A stretch of 64,000 bases of DNA, taken from the NCBI GenBank assembly GCA_965208125.1, contig OZ242320.1:3232001-3296000 (forward strand), written 5' to 3'. The position numbers and the translations under genes were made by a program. Shown here piece after piece: positions 5,524 to 51,298 of the stretch; position 1 is the stretch's first letter, and each line of letters begins with the position of its first letter. The DNA comes from Candidatus Latescibacterota bacterium. Lineage in GTDB: Bacteria; Latescibacterota; UBA2968. The notes beneath the pieces were generated by a model. It was not told the origin of the DNA, did not search any database, and worked only from the letters and a program-made list of their open reading frames with translations.

Positions 5524-5738
5524 TTTAGCCTCCTTGTCCCGGCTATCGTCTCAATAGATAGGTACAGAAAAATTATCTCAAATTACGGTTTAAATCAAGG
5601 TTTATTGTTCACAATGATCCGAGGTATCCATTTTTCCCAATCGGTATGCTCTCGTTTTTTCTATGAGTAACGAAAAAAATGTAGTATATTGAATTGATTA
5701 GAAGTTCTTTGTTTTTCATTTTGTGAAAGGATAGTTGT

Positions 5739-31957: not shown

Positions 31958-33154
31958 TTACACAGAAACGACTTGTCGCGTGTCTTCGATCTCGGCGTCG
32001 AGATTGCCCGACAGGTCGTTGTCGTTGAGGTGAATGCGGTCGACTTTTTCGCCGATGTGTACACCTATGCGCTGTGTTGCCGTTTCATCATTGCCAATGC
32101 GGTTATTTGTGAAGGTGAGGTCGTGGGTTTCGCCCAGGATGCGTATGCCATAGCCTTTGTTTTTGTCGCCGTTGTCGAGTATCTGATTGTTCTCAAAGGT
32201 GTTGCGATGCCCACCCATGGGTTCGGATTCGTTGCGGAAGAGTATGCCTTCACAGCCGTTGCGCAGTGATCGGTTGTTGGAAAACACATTGTCGGTGTCT
32301 TTGTGGCCAATGGAGATGCCCGTGTCGCCATTGCTGATGAGGTCGTTGTTTTCAAAGATGCCGTGTTTGACGCGCCAGCACAGGAAGAGGCCAATGCGGC
32401 CGTTGTTTTCCGAGCGGCAGTTGCGGATGATGGGGTGCTGGCTGCCACTCCCCGGGTGCAGGCCCAGGTGGGTATTGCCCCTGCAGGTGCAGTTTTCGAC
32501 TGTGACGTGCTGGCTCTGCTGGAAGCTGATGCCGTCGCCGTGATAATTTTTGATCGCGCAGTTTTGTATCGCTGTATGGTGCCCGCGGTAGAGGAATATG
32601 CCAGCACCGCGGCAACCGTTGAGGTGCGGATTGTTTTCCCGGTTGCCATCTACAGTCAGGTTTTCGATCCGGGCATTTTCGATGTGGTAGCCACTGATGA
32701 CCGGGAAGGTGGTTGCAGCGCGCGCATTGCGAGAGATGAGATAATCGCCTCCCATGGGCACATTGACGCCAAAGGTGTTGTCCTTTTGCCAGAGAATGGT
32801 GCCGACAGCGGTGTGAAATCCACCGCCCTGATCATCCGTGATGCTGACGCCATAGCTCACTTTGAATCCATCGGGATTTTCAAGGGTGATCTGTTCTTCG
32901 CCAAAATCCCCGTCGAGGAGAAGTGGAGTCTCAACGCCGTCTGCCTTACGCAATGTGGTATTTTCGCCCTGTCCTTTGACCGTGATGTTGCTGCGAAGAT
33001 GGAGCGCGTCGCGCATGATGTACGTGCCGGATAGGATTTCAACCGTGCCTCCGCCGAGCGCGGCGATGTAATCGGTTGCGGCTTGCAAAGCGCGATTGTC
33101 ATTGCCGATGATGTCGGCGTTTTTTTGTCCGACGGTGATGTGTAAGCCAGTCAT
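31958..33154 (-). CDS. Right-handed parallel beta-helix repeat protein (pectate-lyase-like)
   Basis: ALQAA.D...GGTV.I..GTY, repeated N..DGI/NG..GI rungs; no signal peptide. Confidence 0.85.
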   Translation of the reverse strand: MTGLHITVGQKNADIIGNDNRALQAATDYIAALGGGTVEILSGTYIMRDALHLRSNITVKGQGENTTLRKADGVETPLLLDGDFGEEQITLENPDGFKVSYGVSITDDQGGGFHTAVGTILWQKDNTFGVNVPMGGDYLISRNARAATTFPVISGYHIENARIENLTVDGNRENNPHLNGCRGAGIFLYRGHHTAIQNCAIKNYHGDGISFQQSQHVTVENCTCRGNTHLGLHPGSGSQHPIIRNCRSENNGRIGLFLCWRVKHGIFENNDLISNGDTGISIGHKDTDNVFSNNRSLRNGCEGILFRNESEPMGGHRNTFENNQILDNGDKNKGYGIRILGETHDLTFTNNRIGNDETATQRIGVHIGEKVDRIHLNDNDLSGNLDAEIEDTRQVVSV

Positions 33155-33163
33155 GAGAGTCTC

Positions 33164-34207
33164 CTAATCAATGCGAATTTCCCGTCCGGTTTCGCCACTT
33201 TCGAGTACGGCTTCCATCATTTGTTGCACTTGATATCCGTGGCGCAGGGGTGCTTCGCAGGTTTTGCCGTTGAGGATGCAGTCGATAAAGTGGCCCGCAA
33301 TGCGGTCCCAGGCCTGGGTCGCGAGCGGGATATCGACGGCGATGTCGTGCGGGACGCCGTCCTGTGTTTTGTAGATTTTAAGCGGGCGGAATTGCGCGCC
33401 TGCTTCGTCGCCAAAGAGTTCGATCTGGAGTTCGTTGGGCTGGTGCGATGCCCAGAAGCTTTCGACCTGAAGACCGGCGCCGTTTTCAAAGCGGATGAAT
33501 CCGCCGGCATAGTCGTCAGCGGCGTATTGTTCGTAGGTGCTGCGCGGGACTTGTCTAAAGCCCCAGTAGCCGCGTCCGCGCGGTCCAAATTTTGCGCCGC
33601 ACACGCCTGTGACGGTGACGGGTTTGGGCATGCCGAGCAAGTACCACACGGCGTCGAGGACGTGGACACCCATGTCGCGGAATGCGCCGCCGCCTTTTTG
33701 GATGAATCCGAGGTTCCACGCGGGGATGCCGCTTCGGCGCACGCTGCGGGCGCGGGCATAGTACAGGTCCCCAAAATAGCCTTCGCGTGCGAGTTTTCCG
33801 AGGTATTGGCACTGGTCGGAAAATCGGGTGGAGAGCGACATCATGTTGACGACGCCAGATGCTTCGGCGGCTTCGACGAGTTTTTGTGCTGCCTGCTCAG
33901 AGTCCGATAGTGGTTTGGTGACCATGACGTGTTTGTCGTTTTTGACGGCTTCGAGTGCGATGGGCACATGCCACTGGTTTGGGGTGCCTACAAAAACCGC
34001 GTCGATGTCGGGATCTTTACACATTTCTTTGTAATCGGTGTAGAATTTTTGTTCGCCGGGCAATTCGCGGGCAAATTCTTCCATTCTTTCGGGGATCAGG
34101 TCGCATAGTGCGACGACTTCGCCGCGATCATTTTTCGCAAGGGCGCGGCCATTGGGTTTTCCAATGCCCATACCGACGACACATACGCGGACTTTTTTTT
34201 CTGGCAT
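33164..34207 (-). CDS. Gfo/Idh/MocA family oxidoreductase
   Basis: VVGMGIG, GTPNQWH, KHVMVTKP, GGGAFRDMGVH. Confidence 0.92.
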   Translation of the reverse strand: MPEKKVRVCVVGMGIGKPNGRALAKNDRGEVVALCDLIPERMEEFARELPGEQKFYTDYKEMCKDPDIDAVFVGTPNQWHVPIALEAVKNDKHVMVTKPLSDSEQAAQKLVEAAEASGVVNMMSLSTRFSDQCQYLGKLAREGYFGDLYYARARSVRRSGIPAWNLGFIQKGGGAFRDMGVHVLDAVWYLLGMPKPVTVTGVCGAKFGPRGRGYWGFRQVPRSTYEQYAADDYAGGFIRFENGAGLQVESFWASHQPNELQIELFGDEAGAQFRPLKIYKTQDGVPHDIAVDIPLATQAWDRIAGHFIDCILNGKTCEAPLRHGYQVQQMMEAVLESGETGREIRID

Positions 34208-34312
34208 GATGCACTCCTGTTGTTAAATTGGATTGATTTTAAAAATGCGCCCTTTATTATGCAAAAAAAATAGGGTTTTACCAACAGGATTTCACGGAAA
34301 GGACATGGTGTT

Positions 34313-35437
34313 ATGCTCACTCTGGAAGGTTGTCGCAATCGGCAGCAACGATTTCGCGCGCGTCTCTCTGAGGAGGGGATTGATGCGGTTATTATTACGG
34401 ACTATCGGGATATTTACTATTTGACTGGCGTGCTCTTGTCGGCGTATCCATCGTTTTCTTTTCCCGCGCTTCTGTATTTTGAGACCGATGGAGGTTCGTG
34501 GTTGGCGTCAACGACCGATGAAGGGGATGTGGCTGTGGATGAGCGCGTGGTGTACGATTCGCATGTGCTCTATACGATGAACCCCGATCCGATGCGCTTG
34601 CTGAATGCGGCGGTGGCGCAGAAGCTCCGCGATTGTCGGGGTATTTCTCGTTTGGGCTGGCAGCAGGAAGCCACGCCCAAGTTGCTTGCGGATACAGTGT
34701 CAGATACTTTGGGTGGCGAATGGGTGGGGATAGACGATTTGTTGATTGCACAGCAGATGCGTAAGGACGCCGATGAAGTTGCGATGTTGCAAAAGGCGAT
34801 TGATATTAATCTGCGGGCTTATGATCGCGTGCAAGAGGTGATTGCGCCGGGTGTAAATGAGCTGGATGTGCTCGCGGCGGGGCAGCAGGTCGCGCTGAAT
34901 GCAGCGGGTGAGGTGCTGCACCACGGGGGCGATTACCAGTGTGGGCAATTGGGAGGGCTTGCCAGAGACCGGATTATTGAAGATGGGGAGTTGTATGTTA
35001 TCGACGCGCAGACAGAATATCACGGGTACTGGTCCGATCTGTGCCGCACCTTTGCGGTGGGCGATCCCACAGATTTGCAGACGTCGGTGTACGATCTTTT
35101 GAAAGCTATTTTAGAGGATGTCCCCAATCTGGTAAGTCCCGGTGGACGGGGAACCACACTGTGGCATGCGATTGATGAGAGAATCCGCGAGCATCCCCAT
35201 TTGTCTGACATCGGGCTGATCCATCACGCGGGACACGGTGTGGGGATTCGCGCACACGAGCCGCCCGATTTGAATCGGGACAGAGAGGGTATTTTTGAGG
35301 TGGGCACGGTTTTTTCCTGTGAGCCGGGTGCGTATAGCGAGGCATTAAACGGGGGCATTCGGTTGGAGAATACGTTTTTGGTGACGGAAGACGGTGTGCA
35401 AAATTTGACGGATTATCCGCTGGTGTTAAAGAAGTGA
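34313..35437 (+). CDS. Xaa-Pro peptidase family (M24) protein
   Basis: RKDADEV, GYWSDLCRT, HHAGHGVG..HE, EPG.Y, GIRLEN. Confidence 0.9.
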   Translation: MLTLEGCRNRQQRFRARLSEEGIDAVIITDYRDIYYLTGVLLSAYPSFSFPALLYFETDGGSWLASTTDEGDVAVDERVVYDSHVLYTMNPDPMRLLNAAVAQKLRDCRGISRLGWQQEATPKLLADTVSDTLGGEWVGIDDLLIAQQMRKDADEVAMLQKAIDINLRAYDRVQEVIAPGVNELDVLAAGQQVALNAAGEVLHHGGDYQCGQLGGLARDRIIEDGELYVIDAQTEYHGYWSDLCRTFAVGDPTDLQTSVYDLLKAILEDVPNLVSPGGRGTTLWHAIDERIREHPHLSDIGLIHHAGHGVGIRAHEPPDLNRDREGIFEVGTVFSCEPGAYSEALNGGIRLENTFLVTEDGVQNLTDYPLVLKK

Positions 35438-35456
35438 GAAGTGAGAAGTGTGAAGT
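35431..35456. repeat. Heptamer short tandem repeat (GAAGTGA x3.7)
   Basis: GAAGTGA GAAGTGA GAAGTGT GAAGT between convergent stops. Confidence 0.5.
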
Positions 35457-35474
35457 CCACCCAGCCTCTGGTCC

Positions 35475-36464
35475 TCAGAGTGGGAGTACGTTGCCCGTGT
35501 CCGCTGCTTCGCGTGCCTGGAGGCACAGGCGCGTGACTTTTATGGCTTCGTCGGGTCCGATGATGTGGGGTGCTTTGCCCGTGCGTTCCCCATGGAGGTT
35601 GACGAGAAAATTTTCTTCGAGGGGCAAGGACAAGTCGCAGGGTTCTTCGCCCGAGCGAATCAGATGCGTGCGGTCGTCGATGACTTCGATGACGCCTTCT
35701 GATCCGGCGATTCGGAGGCGGTCGTCGCCGTGGGTGGGTGCTGTTGAGGGACGCAAATAATCGAGGTTGATCATTGCTGTGCCGCCATTGCTCAGGCGGA
35801 AGAGCATACCGCCGTGGTCTTCGCAGCCGGGGTAGTCGGGGTGGGCGAGGTTGCCGTGAAGCGCGGCGACTTGTGTGTATTCACGCCCGGTTGTCCAGCG
35901 CGTGTAATCGACGGCGTGGATTGCGACCCAGGGGATTGTGCCGCCGTAAGTTTCTCGCTTTTTGAAAAAGTCCGGGCGCGTGCCAAAGCGATAGGATTTT
36001 TGCGCGGTTGCCAGAAGGGGTTCGCCGATGAGGCCGTCTTGAACTGCCTGGTGTGCTGCGCGAAATGCAGGGGATAGTCGCAGGCCAAACATGGCGGTGA
36101 GGCGAATTCCGCTGTTTTTGACCGCTGTTTCAAGGGCGTCGAGATCTTTCAGAGTGGTTGCAACGGGTTTTTCACTGACGATGTCGATTCCGCGGTTTGC
36201 AGCATCTATTGAGGCTTCGGCGTTGAGGGAATACGGACGACATATACTGACGATGTCGATTTCTTCAGTGTCGAGCATGTGGCGATAGTCGTCATACAGG
36301 CGGGTGTGTGCGGTGAATGCGGCGTGCGATTTGACTTTGGCGAGGGTGTCGTCGGGGTGCCCTTTGGCACAGGCGATGAGTTGTGCGTCGGGGATGTGCG
36401 CGATGCCGTCGAGTACCATGTTCTGATGTCCGTCGCTGCCGATTTGTGCGATTTTGAGTGGCAT
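35475..36464 (-). CDS. Gfo/Idh/MocA family oxidoreductase
   Basis: Start MPLKIAQIG (ATG 36464, RBS AGGAG); SEKPVA, GGTIPWVAIH. Confidence 0.88.
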   Translation of the reverse strand: MPLKIAQIGSDGHQNMVLDGIAHIPDAQLIACAKGHPDDTLAKVKSHAAFTAHTRLYDDYRHMLDTEEIDIVSICRPYSLNAEASIDAANRGIDIVSEKPVATTLKDLDALETAVKNSGIRLTAMFGLRLSPAFRAAHQAVQDGLIGEPLLATAQKSYRFGTRPDFFKKRETYGGTIPWVAIHAVDYTRWTTGREYTQVAALHGNLAHPDYPGCEDHGGMLFRLSNGGTAMINLDYLRPSTAPTHGDDRLRIAGSEGVIEVIDDRTHLIRSGEEPCDLSLPLEENFLVNLHGERTGKAPHIIGPDEAIKVTRLCLQAREAADTGNVLPL

Positions 36465-36523
36465 GGTGTTCTTGCTCCTGTTGTTGAGATTTAGGTTGAT
36501 GGTTTTAATTAACGGAGGAATAA

Positions 36524-38443
36524 ATGCTTTCGCAAAAGTATTCGGAAGACGTGTTAAAAGATATTTTGATTTCGCGGGATGATTGGCAGCCTTTTCCCAC
36601 GGCGTTGACGCGCTATGCGTGGGATGCATTGCCAGAAGGCGTTCGGCAGGCGCAAATTGCGCGGGGGGAAGAACGCCTGAATTTTGAATGGCCGAGCGTG
36701 CCTGCGGTGCGGTTTTTGGATTATGCGCGCAATGGCAATCGCTCGCGGTACGAGAGCTTGAGTTTTGGGCGACGCACGGCGCTGTCCGATCTGGTTCTGG
36801 CAGAGTGCGTGGAGGGCAAAGGCAGATTTTTGGATGATATTACCAATGGTATCTGGTGCATTTGCGAGGAGTCTTTTTGGGGCGTACCCGCGCATATTGG
36901 CGTGCAAAAGGCGGGTAGTGGCTTGCCGGATACGGCTGAGCCGATTGTCGATTTGTTTGCCGCAGAGACGTCGGAATTGCTGGCGTGGACGGTGTATTTG
37001 CTCGGCGCGCAACTCGACGCGATTTCGCCTTTGATTGTGCCGCGCATTGCGCGTGAGATGCAATATCGGATTTTGACGCCTTTGTTGGAGCGCGAAGATT
37101 TTGGCTGGATGGGATATTCTGGTGCGCGCGTGAACAATTGGAATCCGTGGATTGTGTCGAATTGGTTGACTTCTACTTTGTTGATGGAGACCGATGATGC
37201 GCGGCGGGTTGCTTCGGTGTTTAAGGCGATGCAGACGGTGGATCATTTTATCGATCCGTATCCGCAGGATGGGGGCTGTGACGAGGGTCCGGGCTATTGG
37301 GGGCGTGCGGGGGCATCGCTTTACGATTGTTTGGAGTGGCTTTACAGTGCAACGGGTGGCGCGATTGATGTGTATGATGAACTGCTCGTTCAGAATATTG
37401 GCAAGTTTATCTATCGAGTGCAAATTGCGGATCGATATTTTATCAATTTTGCCGATGCGTCACCTGTGGTGATGCCAGCTTTTGCGGTTGTTTATGGCTA
37501 TGGCAAGCGCATTGGCGATGACGCGATGGTGGCTCTCGGCGCGTGGGCTGCAAAACAACAGGGTGCTGCCGAGAAGGGTATTTCGGAGTCTTTTGGGAGC
37601 ATGGGGCGCGCATTGCCCGCGCTGTTTTCGCTGAATGAGATTCTCGATGCAGACGCAGCGCTGCCGTTGCCGCGTGATGTGTTTTTGGACGAGATTGAGG
37701 TGTTTGTCGCTCGCGATCAAGGGGGTTCGACAGAAGGCTTTTTTGTGGGGGCAAAGGGCGGGCACAATGCCGAGAGTCACAATCACAATGATATCGGGCA
37801 TGTGGTGGTCTATTTAGATGGTGAGCCAGTGCTCGTGGATGCGGGGGTCGAGACTTATACGGCCAAGACGTTTAGCAGTACGCGGTATGATATCTGGACG
37901 ATGCAATCCCAATATCACACGTTGCCGACGGTGAATGGACAGATGCAGATTCCCGGGCGGGTTTATTCGGAGACGGGGATTGATTATCACTACGATATTG
38001 CCGCTCGGGATGTGTCTTATGCGGCGAGCGAGACGGATGCGACGTTTGCTCTGGATCTGGCGCAAGCCTATCCGCCAGAGGCTCAGATTGATTCGTGGAT
38101 GAGGAGGGTTGTTTTGCATCGCGGCGAGGGTGTGACGATTGCAGATCGATATGCGTTGAAAGCCGTGACGGGCGATGTTGTGATGAATGTGTTGACGGCA
38201 TGTGGTGTTGAGGATCGCGGCGATGGGACAATCGCGTTGATAGAGGTAGAGTTGGCGGATGGACGCATGTCTGGCGCGGCGCATTTGCACTATGATGTAG
38301 ATGTGTTCGATGTGGCGGTTGAGGATATCGCGATTGAAGATGCGCGATTGAAGACTGTTTGGGGTGATTTGTTGCGAAGAATCACGCTGACGGTTAAGAA
38401 TCCCGAGCTGCGTGGTGGGTGGACAATTCGAGTGACGCGGTGA
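36524..38443 (+). CDS. Heparinase II/III family polysaccharide lyase-like protein
   Basis: NNWNPW, DGGCDEGPGYW, NFADA, KGGHNAESHNHNDIG, DAG..TY, QSQYH. Confidence 0.88.
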   Translation: MLSQKYSEDVLKDILISRDDWQPFPTALTRYAWDALPEGVRQAQIARGEERLNFEWPSVPAVRFLDYARNGNRSRYESLSFGRRTALSDLVLAECVEGKGRFLDDITNGIWCICEESFWGVPAHIGVQKAGSGLPDTAEPIVDLFAAETSELLAWTVYLLGAQLDAISPLIVPRIAREMQYRILTPLLEREDFGWMGYSGARVNNWNPWIVSNWLTSTLLMETDDARRVASVFKAMQTVDHFIDPYPQDGGCDEGPGYWGRAGASLYDCLEWLYSATGGAIDVYDELLVQNIGKFIYRVQIADRYFINFADASPVVMPAFAVVYGYGKRIGDDAMVALGAWAAKQQGAAEKGISESFGSMGRALPALFSLNEILDADAALPLPRDVFLDEIEVFVARDQGGSTEGFFVGAKGGHNAESHNHNDIGHVVVYLDGEPVLVDAGVETYTAKTFSSTRYDIWTMQSQYHTLPTVNGQMQIPGRVYSETGIDYHYDIAARDVSYAASETDATFALDLAQAYPPEAQIDSWMRRVVLHRGEGVTIADRYALKAVTGDVVMNVLTACGVEDRGDGTIALIEVELADGRMSGAAHLHYDVDVFDVAVEDIAIEDARLKTVWGDLLRRITLTVKNPELRGGWTIRVTR

Positions 38444-38601: not shown

Positions 38602-39696
38602 TTATTCGATTAAGGCTTCGGAGATGGCGTCGTGAAATTCGGGGCGGAGATGGGCAATTTGGTTGTTCTCGCGGGTGGGGTGTACGCGGTTGGTGAGGAG
38701 GATGACGCCGAGGTCCCGTATGGGGTCTCCCCATACGGATGTGCCGGTGAATCCGAGGATGCCAAAGGCTTGTTCGCTAAAGTAGCGGCCGCTCGAACTT
38801 TCGCCGGGTGAGACGGTGTCCCAGCCGAGTGCCCAGGTGCTGTTGGGCGCAATATTGGCGCGTGTGGTGAATTGTGGAATGCTCCGTTTGGGAAAGATAC
38901 CTGCGCCGAGCCATGCGAGCAGGCATTTCGACAGGTCATGGGCTGTGGAAAACAGGCCAGCGTGGGAGGCGATACCGCCCATTGCGGCGGCGTTTTCATC
39001 GTGGACTTCGCCGTGTACGAGGTGATCGCGCAAGTCGGAGCCGTCTTCCGTGGGCGCAATGCGGTGTTTGAGAGAGGGCGGTGGACAGTACCAGGTGTCG
39101 TTCATTTTGAGTGGTTCGAATATGTGTTGTTTGACGAGGTGATCCAGACGCTGGCCGCCGATGGTTTCGAGGATTTTGCCCAGGGTGAGAAAGCCCAGGT
39201 CGCTGTACACGGTGTCTGTGCCGGGTTCATAAATTAAGGGGTGTTGGCAGGCTGCGTTGAGCATGGCATCGCGGATGTCAATATCGTGCGCGGCGCGTTG
39301 GTTTTCGTACAGGTGAACATGTGCGGGCAGGCCGCTGCAATGGGCGAGCAGGTGCCGAATTGTGACGCGGTTTTTGTTTTTGCCGGTAAATGAAGGTATA
39401 TAGAATTGCACGGGTGCGTCGAGGTCCAGACGATCTTTATCGGCAAATAACATACAGAGCGTTGTTGTGGCGATGACTTTGGTAACGGAAGCGAGGTCGT
39501 AGAGGGTATTGATTTGTACGGGTGTGGCGTTGGGTTGATAGGTGTGGTGGCCCACAGCCCAGCAGGTGACGATGCCCGCACGGCGCAGGACGAGACCGAC
39601 AGCACCGGGGGTGGTGCGGGTATGCACCTGGCGTTGTAAGACTTGCCTGGCGCGGTCGAGTTTTTGCGAATTAAAACCGAGTTGTTCGGGTGTCAT
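38602..39696 (-). CDS. Serine hydrolase, beta-lactamase (AmpC/PBP-like) family
   Basis: YDLASVTK (SxxK), LLAHCSGL, YSDLGF, VHDENA, LLTNRVHP; start MTPEQLG at 39696 with GGGAGA RBS. Confidence 0.9.
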   Translation of the reverse strand: MTPEQLGFNSQKLDRARQVLQRQVHTRTTPGAVGLVLRRAGIVTCWAVGHHTYQPNATPVQINTLYDLASVTKVIATTTLCMLFADKDRLDLDAPVQFYIPSFTGKNKNRVTIRHLLAHCSGLPAHVHLYENQRAAHDIDIRDAMLNAACQHPLIYEPGTDTVYSDLGFLTLGKILETIGGQRLDHLVKQHIFEPLKMNDTWYCPPPSLKHRIAPTEDGSDLRDHLVHGEVHDENAAAMGGIASHAGLFSTAHDLSKCLLAWLGAGIFPKRSIPQFTTRANIAPNSTWALGWDTVSPGESSSGRYFSEQAFGILGFTGTSVWGDPIRDLGVILLTNRVHPTRENNQIAHLRPEFHDAISEALIE

Positions 39697-39801
39697 TTGT
39701 GTCTCCCAGTTTCCAGCCTCTTGCACGTAGCATTTCTGTGTCCTATATTGGTGAAAGTACGGGAAAAAAACAAAGGAAATTTGACAGGGGAAGGTCGTTT
39801 T

Positions 39802-40449
39802 ATGAGATATCGACATATCTTTGGAGTCGGCGCGTTTATCGCTTTGTTTTTTGCGATGTGTATGCCCGCTGAGGGACAGGTGAATGTGGAACGGCTCGAG
39901 AGCATTGCGCGACATGTGGCACGGGCGGTTTTAGCTGAGGGAGATTCTTTGACGGCAGAGCAGGTCGCATGGGTCGAGCGCATGACCGCGCAATTGGCAG
40001 AGGATGCGGCGTTTCTCGACGAGCAAAAACAGCGGTTAGAAGAGGTGCGTCGCGAAAGAGATGCGTCGATTCGGAATATCGCGAGTCAGGTTGCCAAAGG
40101 GATCGCTGTTCTGATTGCTCTGCTGGTTTTGTGGGCTATTTTTCGTGTTATTAGAAGAGGTGTGAGTGCCGAGTCGGGAAATGATCCTCTGGGGGTGTTG
40201 ATTGCGATGCGTACAGAAGCGCGGGCGCAGAAACTCGGCGAGACACTTGTTAAAGAAAATTTGGCGATGGGGGGAACTGTTGCGCCGAGTATCCGTTCAA
40301 TCTATCGCAGGGAGGATGGGGTGCGAGAAGCTGCGGAGGCGATGGTTTTTTTGAAGACGACGCGGGCGCAACTCAGCCATTTGATCGGCCGCGCAGAGGA
40401 ATTGGGTGGGGGCAAGACGCCAGAACTCGTTGTGATACGTGAGGGGTGA
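39802..40449 (+). CDS. Membrane-anchored protein with C-terminal degenerate CutA domain (copy 1)
   Basis: Signal peptide (AEG-Q), helical/coiled-coil segment, TM GIAVLIALLVLWAIF, then AQKLGETLVKENLA..SIRSIYR..E..VFLKTT..TPEL matching CutA. Confidence 0.7.
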   Translation: MRYRHIFGVGAFIALFFAMCMPAEGQVNVERLESIARHVARAVLAEGDSLTAEQVAWVERMTAQLAEDAAFLDEQKQRLEEVRRERDASIRNIASQVAKGIAVLIALLVLWAIFRVIRRGVSAESGNDPLGVLIAMRTEARAQKLGETLVKENLAMGGTVAPSIRSIYRREDGVREAAEAMVFLKTTRAQLSHLIGRAEELGGGKTPELVVIREG

Positions 40450-40453
40450 AAGG

Positions 40454-41131
40454 ATGTTAAAAGTCTGGATCGTCATTCTGTTTGGATTTTGTTTTGCTGC
40501 GTCCGCAGAGGCTGTGGAAGAGAATGCTTCGCGTATTGCGCGCGAGATGGTTCGCTCGCTGTACGGTTCTGAGCGCGTGAAGCCGTTGCCTCCTGTGGCG
40601 AATGCACAGGTGCGCGTTATTGCGAGAAGGTTGGCTGCAGAGTCGGATGGACGTTTTCAGCATGCGTTTTTTCAGGAGGAGGATCGCGAGCAAGGGGCGT
40701 TTTTCAGCGGGCTGATGAAGCACGTTCTTATCGGGGTGATGATTTGTCTGGTGTTTTTTGTGGTGCATACGGTTGTGCGAAAACTCGATGCGGCGCGGCG
40801 TCTGGGGAAAACTGATCGCGATGTCGCAGTTCAAGGTGGGTTGCGAAATGCGCCTTGTATTCTGGCTCTGCCCATGCCATCTGAGGCGGAGGCAAGTCGC
40901 GTTGGGCACGCGCTTGTTGCCGAGCGGTTGGCTGCGCGGGTAGATGTTTTTTCGCAGTATTTTTTGTCGCCGGATCGGGGTGAAGGTACCGTGCTTTTTG
41001 TGATGACTGTAAAAGGTCGCTTGAGGTCACTGAAAAAACGGTTGGGGAGTGTGTCTATGTCATTTCCCGTGTCGCATGGACACAGATCCTATTTGACGTG
41101 GATTGCCGATGCGGCTGATGGGAGGGGATGA
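40454..41131 (+). CDS. Membrane-anchored protein with C-terminal degenerate CutA domain (copy 2)
   Basis: Signal peptide (AEA-V), TM VLIGVMICLVFFVV, then PSEAEASRVGHALVAERLAARVDV...FPVSHGHRSYLTWI matching CutA start and end. Confidence 0.65.
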   Translation: MLKVWIVILFGFCFAASAEAVEENASRIAREMVRSLYGSERVKPLPPVANAQVRVIARRLAAESDGRFQHAFFQEEDREQGAFFSGLMKHVLIGVMICLVFFVVHTVVRKLDAARRLGKTDRDVAVQGGLRNAPCILALPMPSEAEASRVGHALVAERLAARVDVFSQYFLSPDRGEGTVLFVMTVKGRLRSLKKRLGSVSMSFPVSHGHRSYLTWIADAADGRG

Positions 41132-41174
41132 GGATGTCCGCTACAATGGTTTTCAGGGAGGGCAGGAGGTTGCT

Positions 41175-44100
41175 ATGTCATACCGTATTTCTCTCCTCGT
41201 GTTGCTGATGCTGTTTGCGTGTAGCAAAAAGTCGCCCGAAGACGCGCCACAATTCTATCCTTTGGAGACGGCGCGTATGGTGAGCCATGTGAGTGAGGGG
41301 GTGCTCGCATCGACTGATCCGATTCGCGTGCGCTTTGTGTCGCCTGTTGTTGGCAAAAGTCAGGTTGGACAGGTGTTGCGAACGCGCGTGTTTCGCTTTG
41401 TTCCTTCTATTGACGGTTTGGCGACATGGGAAGACGTGCGTACTCTTGTTTTCAAGCCAAATATACCGCTGACGTTGCGCACGGTCTATAGCGGTGAGCT
41501 CAGCATGGTCGATTTGTTTCCCCAGCACAAAGATCTGACGCCGCTCGTCATCCAGTTTGAGGTCGCGGGACGAGAACTCGTCGCACTCGAGGCAGATTTT
41601 GAGTTGCCCGATGCGAATGATCCTCAGCGTCTCGTTTTTAGTGGTCAGATTAGCTTTAACGAACGCGCGGATTCTTCGGCTGTGAGCGATGCGGTGGCGT
41701 TGCGTTTGGGAGATCAGCAGCTTGCACTCCATTGGCGCATCTTATCAGATGGCAAGACGCACGATTTTACAAGTTCCGAGATCACGCGCACAAAAGAGTC
41801 CCAAGAACTCGCGATGCATATTGACCGGGCTGATCTGGATCTCTCGCAAGACTACGACAATACATGGTCTCTGCCCCCTTTGTCAGCACTTTCCGTTGTT
41901 GAGATTGAAAAACACGCGGACCGGGATCGTCCGAGCATAAGCATCATTTTTTCAGATGATCTCGATTTTGGTCAGGATATCGCGGGGTTGATCACAGCCG
42001 ATCCACCGCAACAGCTTCAACTCAACGCGATTGGCAAAACAGTGAATGTTGTGGGCGATTTTCAGCACGGACAGCGTTATGTGTTGACTGTACATCCGGG
42101 GGTTCGCAGTCGCTGGGGCATTGCGCTGGCACAACCGCATACAGAGACGGTGGTTTTTGACGATATCAAGCCCCGCATGCGTTTTGCGCGTGACGGGGTA
42201 TTTTTGCCCACTTCTGGCAATCGGAGAATTCGGTTTCAAACGGTCAATGTGTCGCGCGTTCACCTCAAAATAGACAAGGTTTTTGAATCGAATCTGGGAC
42301 AGTTCTTGCAAGATCAAAAGGTGGATGGATCGCGCGGTCGCACGCGAGGTGGTTATATGCGCCGCGTGGGGGTAAATGTGGCGGATAAAAAACTGGATAT
42401 TGGCAGAAAAAAAAATATGTGGTTGCAGCACGAACTCGATCTGGATGATCTGATTTCCAAAGACGAGAAGGGGCTTTATCTGATCGGTCTCACTTTTGGG
42501 GCAGAGGATATGCTCTACGGAGATCCCGTAGAAGCGGCAGAGGCGCGTCAACAACGCAGGCGATACCGCGGAACTGATTATTTTAACAATCCTTATTCGC
42601 GCGGTTATGTCTATCAGCACGGGCGTATCTATAAACCTGTGGTTGTCAGCGATATCGGTCTTACGCATCAAAAGACGCATGATCGGCATCTCGTTTATGC
42701 CACCCATCTGGAAGACGCGCGCCCATTACCCGGAGTCACTATAACCCTGCGCACATACCAGAATCAGGTTGTGGAGCAGAAAGTTACAGATCGGAATGGT
42801 TTGGCGGATTTTAGTCCTGTGGAATCGGATGTTTTTTATATCGAGGCCGAGAAAGACGGGCAGCGCAGTTTTGTCAAATCGGGGGATATGGCGTGGAATC
42901 TATCGACTTTTGATACGGGAGGACGAGACCCCGCACCCGACGGTATTCGGGCGTTTTTTTACGCGGAGCGCGGGGTTTATCGACCTGGCGATGATATTCA
43001 TTTGTCGGCGATTGTGCGAAATCACAACCACACGTTTCCAGATGGGCATCCGATTTCGCTCGCGTTTTTCAATCCATTGGGACAGCGCGTGCTCACGCAG
43101 ACCAATCGCGAGGGGAAAGATGGATTTTACACTTTTGATTTATCGACTTCGGCCGACGCGCCAACGGGCAACTGGCGCGCTGAAATTGACGTGGGTAGCC
43201 GCAAGTTCAATCACAGAGTCAAGGTCGAAACCATTGTGCCTTTTCGTCTCAAGGTTTTTCTCGATCCGCAACTTGCAGAGCGGGACCGCGTGTTGAAAGC
43301 CGATCTGAGGAGTGTGTATTTATTTGGCAATCCAGCGGCGGGCTTAAAAGCCAGTGTCGATGTTACGTTGCGCAGTTCTTCGCTTGTATTTCCCAAGTAT
43401 GAGGGTTTTTCGTTGTCAATCAGGCAGTTCAATTCAAGCCGATTACAACCAATATTTTTTCGGGTGCTCTGGATGAGGAGGGCAAGGCCGCTATGTCGTG
43501 GGAGCTTCCTTCTTTGAGCGAAGCACCTTCGCGCCTGTCTGCGATATTGCGCGCCCGCGTGCTCGAAAAAGGCGGGCGACCCAATAGCACAGCGCGCATG
43601 GTACACATCGATCCGTTTGAGGTTTATGTGGGGTTGCGAAAGCCAGATATGGACTACGGTTTTATGCGCACCAATGCCTCTCTTGAAGTGCCCGTTGTTG
43701 CGGTGACGCCCGATGGGGAGACAGCGTCTGGACGCACGCTGATGTATCGCGTTTTTCACAATGAGAATTACTGGTGGTGGGAATACGATTCGAGGGATCA
43801 GTTTCGCCTGCGTTTTAAGCGGGATTTTAGTACGAAGAAGATTTTCGAAACATCGATTATTTCTCGTGATCGCCCGGTGCCGGTTGCGTTTACGCCCGAG
43901 GAAAAAGGAGAGTATTTGATTGAGGTGGCGGATGCGAATGGGCATAAGGCGTCGATTTTTATTCGCGCGTATCCCTGGGGCAGTTTGCCCGCAAGTGGGC
44001 GAGATGCCGGCGCACTGGTGCTCAAGACAGACCGCGAAAATTACGCGCCGGGTGAAACGGCTGTGGTGTCTTTTCCCGTGCCCGATATGTCGTCTGTGCT

Positions 44101-46651
44101 GGTGACTGTGTCACGGGGTGGAAGTGTGGTGCATTCGCAGTGGCATACGCCGAGCACGAGGAATACCGCGCAAATCGAGGTTCCCATTACAGCAGATATG
44201 GCACCGAACGCGTACGTGACGATATCTGTTATTCAGCCGCATAGACAGACGGCCAATGATCGCCCGTTGCGGATGTATGGGGTTGTGCCTTTGCGCGTGG
44301 TTGATTCAGATACACGACTCGATCTCACACTGACTGCGCCCGATGAACTCAAACCCGACGATTCTTTTGAGGTTGTCGTGCAAACGGATGATGAAAAACC
44401 CGCGCAGTTGACGCTGTCTGTTGTGGATGAGGGTTTGCTGGATATCACGCAGTTTTCCACGCCCGATCCATGGCGCGCGTTTTTTGGCAAGTTGCGTTTG
44501 GGGCTGCATATCTCCGATCTGTTTGGGCAGGTTATAGGTGTCAATATCGGCGATGTGTTTAAGACTTTTGCGATAGGCGGCGATGCTGCTCTGGCTGCTT
44601 ATCGGCGCGATAGGCTACCCGAGGAGCAGAAACAGCGTTTTAAGTCTGTATCGCTTTTCGAAGGTCCGATTGCAACCGACGATCAGGGGCGCGCTGTGGT
44701 TTCTTTTGTTATGCCCAATTACGTTGGTTCGGTGCGCATTATGGCTGTGGCTGCGCGGGGCAATGCTTATGGCAGTGTGGAAAAAACAGTGCCCGTGAAA
44801 ATGGATTTGATGGTTTTACCTACTTTGCCGCGCGTGTTGCGCCCCGGCGAGCGCATTGCTGTTCCCGCTACTGTATTTGCTATGGGAGATAGTTTGGGAT
44901 CTGTTGAGGTGGCGATCAGTACAGAGGGATTGCTTCGCGTTGATGGGCAGGCGCGAGATACTATTGCGTTTCGAGAAGCCGGTGAGGTAGATGTACTATT
45001 TATGTGTGTGGTGCCCAATGCTATTGGCGATGCGCGCGTTGCGATTACTGCGACTGCGGGCGATGTGATTGCCACGCATACGACGGATCTGGTCATTTCT
45101 CCTTCGTCGCCGCGCATCAGTTCCGATGAGACGCGGGAGATACGGCCGGGACAAGCGGTAGTACTTCCCGTTCCCGATCGGGGCATTCCCGGTTCCAATC
45201 GCGCACGTCTTACCCTGCATACGCGTCCAAATATGAAGCTCGGCAACCGTCTGCTGTGGCTGGTGCAATATCCCTACGGTTGTGTGGAGCAAGTGGTGTC
45301 GGCGGCATTTCCACAGTTGTATCTCAAGGATATTCTTCTCGTATCGGATAAGTCGAATGAGATTGCGCGGGAGATCGACGATCATATCAATGCTGCGATT
45401 CGACGGTTGCGCCGATTTCAACTGCCGTCGGGTGCGCTCAGTTATTGGCCGGGACGGTCTAAGCCCTCGATATGGGGTACGCTGTATGCCGGACATTTTT
45501 TGATTGAGGCCAATGCCCTCGGTTATTATGTGCCAGACGATCTGTTTGAAAGCTGGGTGCAATACGAGCAGTCTCGCGCTTTGACCACGCGCGATGATCT
45601 CATGATCCGAACCTATCGCGCCTACTTGCTCGCGCTGGCAAATCAACCCGCGCTGGGGGCGATGAATTTACTGAAGGAAAGCAGTTTGCGGGATATGACG
45701 GATGTGGAGAAATGGCTGTTGGCATCGGCGTATCACCGCGCGGGTGGTTCTGCGATAGCCAATGATATTCTCAAGGATGCAGGTACGCTTGCAAATGAGG
45801 GCAAGAGGTGGGAACATACCTTTGGGTCTGCGCTGAGAGATCGCGCGATGATTCTGGGGGCAATGATCGATTTTCAACGCTGGGGAGAAGCCGATCCTCT
45901 GGTTGATGAAATCGCGCTGGCTCTGGCATCGGACAGGTGGTATTCGACACAGGCGAGCAGTTTCGCACTGCTGGCACTGGGCAAGCATATCCGGGCGACT
46001 GAGGGGGATCAACCGTTGCGTTTGGCGGGTTCGGTGACATTGCCCGGTGGGGAGGTCGTGCCGTTTGATTCGGGTTCGCGGTTTTACAATGTCGATATCG
46101 AATCTGGATTTGGACAATCTGTTCGCGTCCAGCTCAATCCCGAGAGCACGGTGACGCGGGCGTTTGTGACACTCGAGTGGTCGGGTGTTCCGCTCAAGGA
46201 CGATGCAGTGGCCGAATCTCGCAGCTTGCAACTCGATGTGCGCTGGCGCGATGATGATGGCTTTTCCGTGTATCCCGATACGCTCAAACAGGGGACGACT
46301 TTCTGGGGACATTTCAGCGTGAAAAATACATCTGTCGCACATATCCGCGAGATTGCATTGACTCAGTTGTTGCCTTCGGGTTGGGAAATTGAAAATACGC
46401 GCTTGTCGGGCGCGCCAATGCCGAGGTGGACTGATAGTTTGGGTTTGGGCAGTGAGGCATATTTTGATATGCGCGACGATCGCGTAACATATTTTTTTGA
46501 CATCGCACCTGAGAGTAAGACGCAGAATTTTGTCGTGAAGCTCAATGCTGTTACCGCAGGCACATTTACCCAGCCACCCACACTTGTCGAGGCGATGTAC
46601 AATAATAAAGTTAAGGCGGTTGTGCCGGGTAAAACAGTGGTGGTGAGGTAG
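41175..46651 (+). pseudogene. Bacterial alpha-2-macroglobulin lipoprotein (YfhM-like), interrupted by a single -1 nt frameshift near 43413 (real or sequencing error)
   Basis: RBS AGGAGG, lipobox LFA-C; MG2 motif ERGVYRPGD; thioester YPYGCVEQ; RDDR and P..VEAMY at the C-terminus; the two ORFs join if one T is restored (FS[F]VNQAVQFKP...GALDEEGKA). Confidence 0.9.
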
Positions 46652-48937
46652 ATGAGGCGCCGATACAAAATTTTAATCGGTATTTTTGCGGGAATAGTAT
46701 TTCTGTACTTTGCCGTTCCGGTGCCGCATTTTTTAGCGGATTATAGCGCGGTTGTGCTGGATAAAGATGGGCGCATTTTGCGCGCTTTTCTCAATAACCG
46801 CCAGCAGTGGCATTTCCCGCCTCGGAAGGATGCGCGCGTTTCGCAGAAGCTCAAAGCGAGTGTGCTCTATTTTGAAGATCGGTATTTTGATTATCACTTT
46901 GGCGTCAATCCCGTGTCCGTGGTGCGCGCGCTGTATCAGAATTTGAAACAGGGCAGAACTGTGAGTGGCGCAAGTACGTTGACTATGCAAGTGGCGCGGC
47001 TGATGCACCCCAAACCGCGCACTTATTTTAACAAGGCACTGGAGATGCTTCAGGCGCTGAAGATGGAGATGCGGTATTCAAAAGAAGAGATTTTGCAACT
47101 TTATCTCGATCACGCGCCTTATGGCGGAAATGTGGTGGGCTATCGGGCAGCGGCGTTGCGTTTTTTTCGTAAATCGCCGGATCAGCTTACCTGGGCAGAG
47201 GCGGCATTGCTCGCGGTGTTGCCCAATGCGCCGGGAAAAATTTCGCCTCAGACGCATCCCGATCTTTTAAAAAAGAAGCGGGATGCGTTGCTTAACGCAT
47301 TGCACGGTGGGGGATATTTTGATGCAGAGACGCTGTATTTGGCAAAAAAAGAGTCTGTGCCGAGCAAGTCCCATCCATTTCCCATGCTGGCTTCTCATCT
47401 GGCGCGGTACATTAAAGATCGCCAGACGCCATTTGTTCATCCGACTACGATCGATCGGGATATTCAGATTCGAGCAGAAGCGCTCGTTGCGCGTCACGTC
47501 AGCAGGTTGCGGCAGCGCGGGATTCACAATGGTTTTGCCCTGATTGCGGATACCAAAACGGGTGCTGTTCGCGGGTATGTTGGATCCGAAAATTTTACAG
47601 ATAGCTACGTCGATGGGATTCACGCGCCGCGGTCGTCGGGTTCGCTGCTCAAGCCATTTCTCTACGCGCTCAGTATGGATGCGGGGCTGATTCTGCCACA
47701 GAGCAAAATTCGGGATATTCCGACGTATTACGGTTCGTTTTCGCCACACAATGCCAGTCGCACATTTCAGGGGCTTGTCTCGGCGCATGATGCTTTGATT
47801 TTGTCGGCGAATGTGCCTGCGGTACGCTTGCTTTATGAGTATGGTCTGGTGGCGTTTTACGAACGGCTCCGCGCGGCTGGTTTGACGACGTTGTTCCGCA
47901 CGCCCAATGATTACGGCTTGCCCCTCGTTCTCGGTGGTGCTGAGGTGACGGGTTGGGATATGGCGGTGCTTTTTCGCGGTTTGGGCAATGGGGGCGTGTT
48001 TCAGCCTCTTCATATAAATCCGACAGATCGCCCGTCTGAACCCGCGCGTTTGCTCAGTCGCGGTGCGTGTTATCTGGTGCTGAATACGTTGCGCGATCTT
48101 TCGCGGCCCGGAATAGAATTTTACTGGCATCAGTTTCAAAACCAATGGCCCATTGCGTGGAAAACGGGTACGAGTTATGGGCACCGCGATGCGTGGGCTG
48201 TGGGAGTGTCGCCACAGTGGACGATTGCTGTGTGGGTGGGTAATTTCGCGGGTGAAGGGGTGCCCGAGCTCACGGGCGCGCGCTGTGCTGCGCCTTTGTT
48301 TTTTGATTTGTTTAATAGTTTGCCCCGCGACCCCGATCAACGGTGGTTCGCGGCACCACAGGCAGATTTGATCCGGCGCGATGTTTGTGCTAATACTGGG
48401 TATCGCGCTGCGTCGCATTGTCCAGAGCGGGTTTCTGTGGAAGCACCCCGCGTACTTTTGAAAATTTGCCCGTATCACCGGGTTATTACGGTGAATGCCG
48501 ACAGTACACAGCGGGTATGCTCTCTTTGCTGGCAGCCGGGTGAACACCGTCGCGTTGCGCGTCTGGTGTATCCGCCAGATGTTGTTCACCACTTGCGGCA
48601 ACGCGGTCAAAGTAGGGGGGATTTGCCACCGCATCGCGCGGATTGTGCGGCGCAAGCAGGTCACGCACCTGTACATATTGTGTATCCGACGCGGAATGCG
48701 CGTCTCTATTTGCCCCGTGATTTTGACGGGACCTTGCAGAATGTCGTGTTGCGGGTGACACATCGCGATCAAAATCGCACGCTATACTGGTATCTCAACC
48801 ATCGCTATTTGGGAGAGACGAATACGCGGCACGTCAAATCCGTTGCGCTGCCAGCGGGCCAACACACTCTCGAGGTGATCGATGAGATCGGCCACTGCGA
48901 TCAAACGCGCTTTTACGTCTCGTCCAGACAGGGGTAA
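46652..48937 (+). CDS. pbpC: Penicillin-binding protein 1C
   Basis: EDRYF..HFGVNP, GASTLTMQ, SLLKPF, SAN, KTGTSYG.RDAW, PBP1C C-terminal domain; directly follows A2M. Confidence 0.93.
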   Translation: MRRRYKILIGIFAGIVFLYFAVPVPHFLADYSAVVLDKDGRILRAFLNNRQQWHFPPRKDARVSQKLKASVLYFEDRYFDYHFGVNPVSVVRALYQNLKQGRTVSGASTLTMQVARLMHPKPRTYFNKALEMLQALKMEMRYSKEEILQLYLDHAPYGGNVVGYRAAALRFFRKSPDQLTWAEAALLAVLPNAPGKISPQTHPDLLKKKRDALLNALHGGGYFDAETLYLAKKESVPSKSHPFPMLASHLARYIKDRQTPFVHPTTIDRDIQIRAEALVARHVSRLRQRGIHNGFALIADTKTGAVRGYVGSENFTDSYVDGIHAPRSSGSLLKPFLYALSMDAGLILPQSKIRDIPTYYGSFSPHNASRTFQGLVSAHDALILSANVPAVRLLYEYGLVAFYERLRAAGLTTLFRTPNDYGLPLVLGGAEVTGWDMAVLFRGLGNGGVFQPLHINPTDRPSEPARLLSRGACYLVLNTLRDLSRPGIEFYWHQFQNQWPIAWKTGTSYGHRDAWAVGVSPQWTIAVWVGNFAGEGVPELTGARCAAPLFFDLFNSLPRDPDQRWFAAPQADLIRRDVCANTGYRAASHCPERVSVEAPRVLLKICPYHRVITVNADSTQRVCSLCWQPGEHRRVARLVYPPDVVHHLRQRGQSRGDLPPHRADCAAQAGHAPVHIVYPTRNARLYLPRDFDGTLQNVVLRVTHRDQNRTLYWYLNHRYLGETNTRHVKSVALPAGQHTLEVIDEIGHCDQTRFYVSSRQG

Positions 48938-48960
48938 TTTGGTAGGCAGGTGAAAAATCT

Positions 48961-49909: not shown

Positions 49910-51298
49910 ATGTCTGACCGTCCCAATATTCTGATGATTATGTCCGATGAGCACGACCCGGCAGTGATGGGGTGTTATGGCGATTCTATTGTGCAAACGC
50001 CGCATATGGACCGACTGGCAGAAGAGGGTGTTGTGTTTGATGCGGCTTATACGACTTCGCCGCTTTGCGCGCCTGCGCGTGCGAGTTTTACGGCGGTGCA
50101 ATACGTGAGTCGCTGTGGGGTGTGGACCAATGATTGTCAGTTGCCCTCTGACGATTATCCTTCGCTGCCTCACGCGCTGAATGCGGTGGGCTATGAATGC
50201 TGGCTGGGTGGCAAGATGCATTTTTCGGGTACACATCGCTATGGTTTTCGCGATGTTTATCCCGGTGCGAATCAGGGGGACAGGAGTGGCAAGGGCGGGA
50301 GGCGCGCGTTCGATGATCTGAGTGAATCGAGTTTTGGTTGGGAAGGGCGGGTGGCGGCTTTTAAGACGAGTGATACATCGCCCGTTTTGGAGAGGGACCG
50401 CAAGGTGACAGCGGAGTGCAGTGCGTTTTTGCAGAATCGCTCGGCGGATGATAAGCCGTTCTTTTTGCTGGCAGGTTATGTGGCACCGCATTTTCCGCTG
50501 ACTATTCCAGAAGCGTATTACACGCCTTATAAAGATAAGGTGCCCATGCCCGAGATTCCCGAGGGTTTTTTGGAGACGTTGCCGACCAATTACAAGCATT
50601 TGCGAGCCGGGTTTGGCGTGACAAAGGCGACGCCCGAGCAGACGAAGTTGGGGCGCGAGCTTTACTGGGGTTTTGTGAATTGGCTGGACGACGAGATCGG
50701 CAAGTTGCTCGCCGCGCTCAATGATTCCGAAGTGGCGGATAATACGATTGTGATTTACTGCACGGATCACGGCGAGAACAAGGGCGATCACGGGTTGTGG
50801 TGGAAGAATAATATGTATGAGCACGCTTCGCGGACGCCGCTGATTGTGTCTTTTCCAAAACGCTGGGCAGGTGGGCAGCGGCGGACGGGTGTGTGTTCGC
50901 TGGTGGATCTGGCGCAGACCATAGCGGAGATCGGCGGGGCGGAACGGTCAGATGACTGGGATGGCGAGTCGTTGCTCAATTATCTGGACGATGGGAATAG
51001 CGAGTGGCGGGATATTGCGGTGAGCGAATACTACGCCCACAATATTGCGTCGGGCATGATGATGGTTCGGCAGGGTCCGTGGAAATACGTGTATCACGCG
51101 CGGTTTGATGAGGTGCATGGACCCGAACGCGAGTTGTACAATTTGGAAGATGATGCTGGAGAATTTAACAATCTGGCAGATGATCCCGCGCAGGCCGATC
51201 GCATCGCACAATTGCACGATTTGTTGACGAGGGAATTGAGACGCGATCCCGAAGAGGCTGAGGCGCAAAGCCGAGCGGATTTGGCGAAGGGGTATTGA
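49910..51298 (+). CDS. Sulfatase (choline-sulfatase-like)
   Basis: IMSDEH, CAPAR motif, GKMHF, TDHGE, WWKNNMYE. Confidence 0.93.
   Translation: MSDRPNILMIMSDEHDPAVMGCYGDSIVQTPHMDRLAEEGVVFDAAYTTSPLCAPARASFTAVQYVSRCGVWTNDCQLPSDDYPSLPHALNAVGYECWLGGKMHFSGTHRYGFRDVYPGANQGDRSGKGGRRAFDDLSESSFGWEGRVAAFKTSDTSPVLERDRKVTAECSAFLQNRSADDKPFFLLAGYVAPHFPLTIPEAYYTPYKDKVPMPEIPEGFLETLPTNYKHLRAGFGVTKATPEQTKLGRELYWGFVNWLDDEIGKLLAALNDSEVADNTIVIYCTDHGENKGDHGLWWKNNMYEHASRTPLIVSFPKRWAGGQRRTGVCSLVDLAQTIAEIGGAERSDDWDGESLLNYLDDGNSEWRDIAVSEYYAHNIASGMMMVRQGPWKYVYHARFDEVHGPERELYNLEDDAGEFNNLADDPAQADRIAQLHDLLTRELRRDPEEAEAQSRADLAKGY

Follow-up and report, generated by a model that had tools for sequence, protein, structure and literature searches.

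Tandem CutA paralogues tethered to the membrane by a FliF-like segment in a Latescibacterota bacterium

We analyzed a 64,000-nucleotide (nt) stretch of contig OZ242320.1 (positions 3,232,001 to 3,296,000), hereafter the window, from a Candidatus Latescibacterota bacterium, which contains two adjacent genes on the same strand, cutA-m1 and cutA-m2 (copy 1 and copy 2), each encoding a CutA domain joined to a transmembrane (TM) segment; that of copy 1 resembles the second TM segment (TM2) of the flagellar protein FliF. The coordinates and distances given in an earlier note, made from the DNA letters alone, proved correct: cutA-m2 starts 4 nt past the stop of cutA-m1, and the ATG of the alpha-2-macroglobulin (A2M) gene, at 41175, lies 43 nt further on. 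The two proteins are paralogous over their whole length and not in the CutA domain alone, with hhalign aligning residues 21-202 of copy 1 with residues 16-201 of copy 2 over 176 columns (probability 97.6%, E 3.1e-12).

Table 1. Features of the locus; positions are those of the window.
Feature	Position	Strand	Description
cutA-m1	39802..40449	+	215-amino acid (aa) bitopic protein: signal-like residues 1-25, periplasmic helices ~26-97, TM ~98-117, presumably cytoplasmic CutA domain ending before the C-terminal helix
FliF-TM2-like anchor of copy 1 (residues 83-124)	40048..40173	+	Juxtamembrane helix, TM and basic cytoplasmic border; identity to FliF of genome G042
CutA domain of copy 1 (residues 132-212)	40195..40437	+	Equivalents of E. 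coli E61 and E90 (E179, E208) kept; C-terminal helix gone
cutA-m2	40454..41131	+	225-aa bitopic protein: signal peptide-like residues 1-20, periplasmic helices, TM ~90-108, presumably cytoplasmic CutA domain with shortened beta2-beta3, C-terminal helix kept, invariant tail
CutA domain of copy 2 (residues 137-219)	40862..41110	+	Pfam CutA1 match
Divergent PF00144 hydrolase (beta-lactamase family, PBP4B-like)	38602..39696	-	Stays beside cutA across the order
Intergenic region, hydrolase/cutA-m1, divergent	39697..39801	.	105 nt; no consensus promoter found
A2M (two frames, 41175-43517 and 43493-46651) and PBP1C (46652-48937)	41175..48937	+	Variable 7.8-kb cassette between cutA-m2 and an APH(6)-like gene; outside the conserved unit

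Known bacterial CutA proteins are soluble homotrimers of ~105-115 aa, with a ferredoxin-like beta-alpha-beta-beta-alpha-beta fold and then a C-terminal helix; we take T. thermophilus 1NZA and E. coli 1NAQ to be solved examples. In contrast, the window holds two unlike paralogues rather than one. They are longer, at 215 and 225 aa, and each has two hydrophobic segments that correspond to a signal-like segment and a TM segment, with periplasmic helices between them; yet their sequences place both in the CutA family, and their modeled folds resemble that of CutA. Residues 132-212 of copy 1 aligned with positions 3-83 of the 99 in the Pfam CutA1 profile (PF03091), scoring 46.5 bits (E 3.2e-12; cut-off 22.4 bits), and the alignment ended before the C-terminal helix. 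Copy 2 matched over residues 137-219, equivalent to positions 3-98 of 99 (E 1.3e-4), with 22.2 bits, 0.2 bits short of the cut-off, and with 24.1 bits when scored together with the neighboring stretches of its frame. CutA1 was the sole family above cut-off in the Pfam scan of the two proteins, the GlnB-type PII family not being among those that passed, and the NCBIfam CutA equivalogs matched them far under threshold only. When profiles made from 15 orthologues of each copy were compared with T. thermophilus CutA1 (1nza), that of copy 1 aligned with residues 5-86 of 103 (E 1.3e-13) and that of copy 2 with residues 4-98 (E 1.5e-9), the latter with deletions of 6 residues in the beta2-beta3 region and of 7 residues before beta4. 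In AlphaFold2 (AF2) models, the mean confidence score (pLDDT) was 63.5 for copy 1 and 66.6 for copy 2, with block means within the CutA domains mostly between 64 and 89; the C-terminal helix is present in the copy 2 model (residues 211-221), and the copy 1 chain finishes after beta4 with no such helix. Among the Foldseek matches listed for these models, we found CutA structures and CutA-based designed cages only (best E 2.8e-7 for copy 1 and 2.1e-5 for copy 2), and a search of the ESM Atlas by structure with the homologue P0047 returned a CutA cluster only. The earlier note had assigned both proteins to CutA and had described their degeneration as complementary, copy 1 lacking the C-terminal helix and copy 2 having a shortened middle but keeping the helix, and the Pfam and 1nza comparisons bear out both points.

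Further, when set against soluble CutA proteins from their own clade, both window proteins proved to have lost the Cys of the LAAC motif, the Trp of the YxW motif (YRW) and the H-x-Y motif, losses that the note had also recognized; the soluble relatives have the LAAC Cys and an HHPY or HSY motif. A 2025 paper proposes that CutA binds pteridine and copper in intersubunit clefts, and reports for E. coli CutA an acidic intersubunit pocket of E59, E61, and E90 and a His2Cys Cu(II) site (PMC12685090). The Cys and His residues of that Cu(II) site are kept in neither window protein. In the residue alignment to the E. coli CutA chain, E61 and E90 correspond in copy 1 to E179, which is nearly invariant among the 15 copy 1 orthologues, and to E208, which is invariant; the E59 position is occupied by Ala177, preceded by an invariant Glu176. 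In copy 2, E61 is replaced by Gly and the E90 region is deleted, so that neither pocket Glu is kept. The orthologue alignments of both copies contain new invariant motifs. We also note that the copies in other genera finish with a basic aromatic tail of the P-W-W-K/R-R type (loci L046, L047, L048, L049, and L052), in place of which copy 2 of the window's family has an invariant C-terminal tail of the A-D-A-A-D-G-R-G type.

Outside the CutA domains, Kyte-Doolittle analysis placed hydrophobic segments at residues 5-25 and 92-122 of copy 1 and at residues 1-22 and 81-114 of copy 2. By eye, the N-terminal segments are closed by small-residue motifs resembling those of signal-peptidase sites (A-E-G before Q, and A-S-A or A-E-A before V), and in both proteins Arg/Lys residues stand directly past the TM segment. 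In the AF2 models, one long helix runs from the periplasmic part through the TM segment (residues 52-121 in copy 1 and 66-119 in copy 2). Hydropathy, modeled helices and the Pfam matches fit the layout proposed in the earlier note for each protein, namely a signal peptide, exported helices, one TM segment and a CutA domain.

We surveyed 168 genomes of one phylum; the window's genus, g1, comprises 21 genomes, the window's own (G000) and G072-G091. When these genomes were searched with copy 1, a recurring match, covering query residues 66-148, was to a protein of 500-540 aa in relatives; the two such proteins that were scanned (from G064 and G037) are FliF and match PF01514 and PF08345. The part common to FliF and the copies is TM2 itself, flanked by the last periplasmic helix on one side and by a basic border on the cytoplasmic side. 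Residues 403-449 of G042 FliF are identical to copy 1 of the same genome at 36 of 47 positions (77%, E 3e-17), and G042 FliF is identical to G042 copy 2 at 37 of 79 positions (47%, E 4e-9). The G064 FliF and copy 1 share 34 of 59 residues (58%, E 2e-13), and window copy 1 is identical to G042 FliF at 23 of 42 positions (55%, E 1e-8), so that the identity to copy 1 proteins is 55-77% over 42-59 aa; window copy 2 has no significant similarity to G042 FliF (E 8.4). A FliF protein query against the window's genome gave the copy 1 anchor (40045-40176) as its sole match. Unlike FliF, the window proteins have no match to the ring-building domains (PF01514/PF08345) and no FliG-binding tail, and the TM2 segment alone is held in common. 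Judged from these alignments, the anchor, with its TM and juxtamembrane parts, and FliF TM2 are homologous. FliF TM2 runs from the periplasm to the cytoplasm, and the likely topology of the pair is therefore with the helices outside and the CutA domain inside. Both proteins would then be bitopic in the inner membrane, with the 65-70 N-terminal residues of the mature chain forming periplasmic helices and the CutA domains lying in the cytoplasm.

The divergently transcribed PF00144 hydrolase adjoins the pair in 28 of 30 loci, with 52-95% identity. In all five loci examined from genera without the pair (G052, G050, G071, G069, and G040), a soluble CutA, of 106-109 aa in the called open reading frames (ORFs), is divergent from the hydrolase orthologue. 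The window's genome, a single contig that is 96% complete, holds no PF03091 match beyond the two genes. Because a soluble cutA occupies the same place in sister genera and the genome has no further PF03091 protein, we infer that the pair replaced the resident soluble cutA in situ.

Copy 1 matches were found in 65 of the 168 genomes. Matches long enough to take in the anchor come from g1 (20 of 20 genomes and the window), from three further genera of its family (g2, g3, and g4), from two genera of a second family (g8 and g9) and from a third family; the other matching genomes have the CutA domain alone, in short frames. Of the 30 loci compared, 28 have a second CutA-like gene next to copy 1, and two are exceptions. 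First, in G066, copy 1 lies at a contig end, and a weak copy 2 match (E 4e-6) stands at the start of another contig. Second, in G085, copy 2 is 3.4 Mb away, still beside the sulfatase gene. The G085 copy 1 (L040, 9663-10610), away from copy 2 and the hydrolase, has two small ORFs and a peroxiredoxin-like ORF as its neighbors. No genome has an anchored copy 1 without a copy 2 (21/21 in g1, 1/1 in g2, 3/3 in g3, 1/1 in g4, 1/1 in g8, and 2/2 in g9), and the pairing expected in the earlier note is thus seen in other genomes as well. Within the genus, the median dN/dS (Nei-Gojobori) was 0.18 for copy 1 (210 pairs) and 0.27 for copy 2 (190 pairs), compared with 0.20 for the neighboring hydrolase (189 pairs), with values of 0.15-0.16 for the periplasmic segments; both reading frames are intact in 21 of 21 genomes. 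We conclude that both copies are under purifying selection; a ratio near 1, which the note had named as a sign of decay, was not seen.

The anchored architecture is rare. In a profile search of a 50%-identity representative library (1.84 billion representatives), 10,039 CutA-family proteins were found at E <= 1e-3 and just 23 at E <= 1e-30. Most of the 23 span nearly the full length of the profile, a few more full-length matches rank lower, and nearly all of the full-length matches that were checked have a signal-like segment and a TM segment. With copy 1 as the query, 49 database proteins matched at E <= 1e-3, and 93 with copy 2, which speaks against chance reading frames; some matching protein records are labeled Gemmatimonadetes or Gemmatimonadota. 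An alignment-seeded search for related loci returned genomes of the same genus only, and therefore has no bearing on spread outside the clade.

Relatives of the window's genome display a graded series of forms. In G038 and G039, a single gene encodes a FliF-like TM segment and a complete CutA domain. This single form has a short N terminus with no long periplasmic segment (L064, ~12900-13350; L051, ~5400-5800) and perhaps represents an early step toward the pair. In the second family, f2 (G042, G044, and G043), both anchored copies have near-complete CutA domains: the C-terminal helix is kept in copy 1, as are YxW and H-x-Y, and copy 2 keeps LAAC and T-P-E. In the window's family, copy 1 is without the C-terminal helix and copy 2 without the pocket residues. 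Further, in G037 an anchored, truncated domain of the copy 1 type is fused to a complete CutA domain (L049, 3825-4820) and is followed by an anchored gene of the copy 2 type (4826-5485), giving three CutA domains in two chains. The fused protein recurs as P0146, with 90% identity, on a 428-kb contig, making two clusters in all. In a maximum-likelihood tree of the domains (30 rows, about 100 columns, midpoint-rooted), the copy 2 sequences and the second gene of G037 form one clade (support 97/97), and the copy 1 sequences and the first domain of G037 form another (support 97/94); both clades span three families, and the copy 1 clade excludes the soluble proteins as well as the second G037 domain. 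Given the midpoint rooting and the ~100 columns, we draw no order of events from the tree beyond the two clades.

Overall, we think it probable, though well short of certain, that cutA-m1 and cutA-m2 encode a membrane-tethered, FliF-anchored CutA pair that arose by anchoring, duplication and complementary loss and that co-assembles into a hetero-oligomer with the role of CutA at the membrane. First, a soluble CutA beside the PF00144 hydrolase would have gained a signal sequence and a copied FliF TM2/juxtamembrane segment; second, the whole anchored gene would have been duplicated in tandem; third, complementary parts would have been lost from the two copies. Because each copy lacks what the other keeps, neither is found alone, and a relative has three domains in two chains, we infer that the copies co-assemble on the CutA threefold as a membrane-tethered hetero-oligomer, most likely a heterotrimer. 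In such an assembly, copy 1 would give the beta2-beta3 hairpin and the remnant of the acidic intersubunit pocket, and copy 2 would give the C-terminal helix and a lineage-specific conserved surface. The complex may do the cell's CutA job, such as small-molecule or copper-linked sensing, at the membrane, since the genome has no other CutA.

Several points weigh against this reading. Cleavage of the signal peptides is putative and was judged by eye, and the AF2 models have low confidence outside the CutA domains. The anchor of window copy 2 has no significant pairwise likeness to FliF, and its proposed descent leans on copy 2 of f2 and on the tree. The anchored and soluble forms are patchy among genera, and a single origin therefore requires losses or lateral replacement. 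The pocket of copy 1 is not intact, because the equivalent of E. coli E59 is Ala, and the near-complete domains of f2 could form homotrimers. The hetero-oligomer itself is putative, resting on the losses, the co-occurrence and the fusion, and its stoichiometry is conjectural. Finally, CutA is present in all domains of life and its role is debated, so the function that the pair would have taken to the membrane is itself unsettled.

The two proteins might instead form two independent membrane-tethered homotrimers that took on separate jobs after the duplication and do not assemble jointly. The single-gene anchored CutA of G038 and G039, the near-complete CutA domain of each f2 copy and the separation of the genes in G085 would all fit this explanation, which we nevertheless consider unlikely, although it deserves serious attention: within the window's family the C-terminal helix is missing from copy 1 and part of beta2-beta3 from copy 2, the copies co-occur strictly, and G037 distributes three domains over two chains.

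The earlier note had placed the pair at the head of an operon with A2M and PBP1C, as a receptor or scaffold working with them in envelope defense or repair. The A2M and PBP1C genes, a pair of the yfhM-pbpC type, are directly downstream of cutA-m2 in the window and co-oriented with the CutA pair, with gaps of 4 nt between the two cutA genes and 43 nt before A2M and with no terminator-like site between cutA-m2 and A2M. The A2M protein has a lipoprotein-like N terminus and the domains bMG3, MG2, A2M_BRD, A2M, bMG6, bMG10, and TED, and PBP1C has the domains Transgly, Transpeptidase, and BiPBP_C. A2M and pbpC follow the pair directly, in the same order, in 13 of the 21 genomes of the genus (including G072 and G073); however, they are absent from the locus in the other 8 (G080, G086, G078, G087, G082, G091, G079, and G085), and A2M is present in 0 of 11 loci from other genera. 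In G078 and G079, the APH(6)-like gene, which lies 3' of pbpC in the window, is within ~40 nt of cutA-m2, and alignment of the junctions revealed a clean presence or absence of the 7.8-kb cassette (window, 41132-48960; empty sites, L036 4600-4700 and L062 2960-3056). Further, no A2M was found anywhere at E <= 1e-10 in five of five cassette-less genomes of the genus that were tested (95-99% complete), all of which keep both CutA genes. The A2M of the window is itself split into two frames, with one T missing from a short T run near 43412/43413 compared with the intact orthologues of G072 and G073; the split reflects either a genuine frameshift or a mistake of assembly in the homopolymer. The variable cassette, the clean empty sites and the A2M-less genomes that keep the pair therefore do not support a functional tie to A2M and PBP1C, which are not co-inherited with the CutA pair; we regard such a partnership as very unlikely, and the position of the pair before the A2M genes is a local accident. 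What stands of the interpretation in the note is a conserved, non-decaying and probably heteromeric pair of membrane-tethered CutA paralogues with a PII-like fold and complementary losses; its partnership with A2M and PBP1C does not. The note had picked up neither the PF00144 hydrolase as the conserved neighbor nor the FliF TM2 origin of the anchor. Separately, the A2M orthologue of G072 (L035, 10711-12000) contains ~1.2 kb that match nothing in the query, placed between residues 838 and 866 of its C-terminal half; this may be an insertion.

A role as a flagellar accessory, with the FliF-like anchor placing the CutA pair in or beside the MS ring, also has little credence, even though the anchor is 58-77% identical to TM2 of the same genome's FliF in flagellated relatives. 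The window's genome has no match to PF01514, and this family is found in 0 of 21 genomes of g1, compared with 13 of 32 in the rest of the order, so that the genus appears to be without flagella; all of its genomes keep the pair with the conserved anchor. Genera g5 and g6 have FliF but soluble CutA only. Because the genus has no FliF, we regard the anchor as a borrowed part, with no sign of flagellar function there, and a flagellar role is excluded for the window's genome. Lastly, that the genes are decaying, functionless duplicates might be suggested by the canonical CutA motifs lost in both and by the marginal Pfam score of copy 2, but is scarcely credible and is ruled out by dN/dS ratios like that of the neighboring gene and by conservation, seen in the intact frames throughout the genus and the new invariant motifs.

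With the FliF-anchored, co-assembling CutA pair as our preferred explanation, a more specific device can be imagined, which we offer tentatively and consider doubtful. A heterotrimeric CutA head under the inner membrane might be joined by three helices of the FliF-TM2 type to a periplasmic helical stalk, so that the complex would read the state of the periplasm or membrane jointly with a cytoplasmic ligand (of the pterin or copper type) and signal to a membrane partner. PII regulators are known to act on membrane transporters, GlnK with AmtB and SbtB with SbtA, as soluble proteins that are reversibly recruited. As trimeric, ferredoxin-like small-molecule sensors acting at the membrane, they may be the nearest working model, by functional analogy only; the window pair differs in that it would be tethered covalently and permanently, and it has a CutA rather than a GlnB-type domain. 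If such a device exists, the role of CutA, obscure for so long, would be located at the membrane, and the device would provide a natural asymmetric CutA for the study of single binding clefts.

A literature search found no report of membrane-anchored or heteromeric CutA, or of a relation between CutA and FliF, in sources that did not cover subscription journals; CutA and FliF appeared together in genome surveys only. The FliF-TM2-derived anchor on a CutA pair, the replacement of a soluble CutA at the same locus and the less degenerate, single and fused forms in relatives are new here. The lineage has swapped its only soluble CutA for a permanent membrane-tethered pair of unlike subunits, which suggests that CutA can work at the membrane and should interest the field of CutA and PII-like proteins. 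The pair would also offer a naturally asymmetric assembly that retains only part of the clefts, a clean, datable case of domain shuffling in which a TM anchor was taken from FliF, and a case of tandem duplication followed by complementary loss whose intermediates are still alive in sister genera.

With regard to the neighboring genes, a scan of 39400-41500 for promoters and terminators gave nothing above the shuffled expectation. The divergent hydrolase had PBP4B as its best NCBIfam match, with 185 bits, under the cut-off of 385, and has no N-terminal hydrophobic segment when translated from Met74 of its long ORF. The genes at 31958-38443 and 49910-51298 encode a beta-helix protein, two GFO/IDH/MocA oxidoreductases, a heparinase II/III-like protein and a sulfatase, which suggests that the genes around the pair serve the use of sulfated polysaccharides; these are followed, at 51295-53400, by a gene for a GAF histidine kinase.

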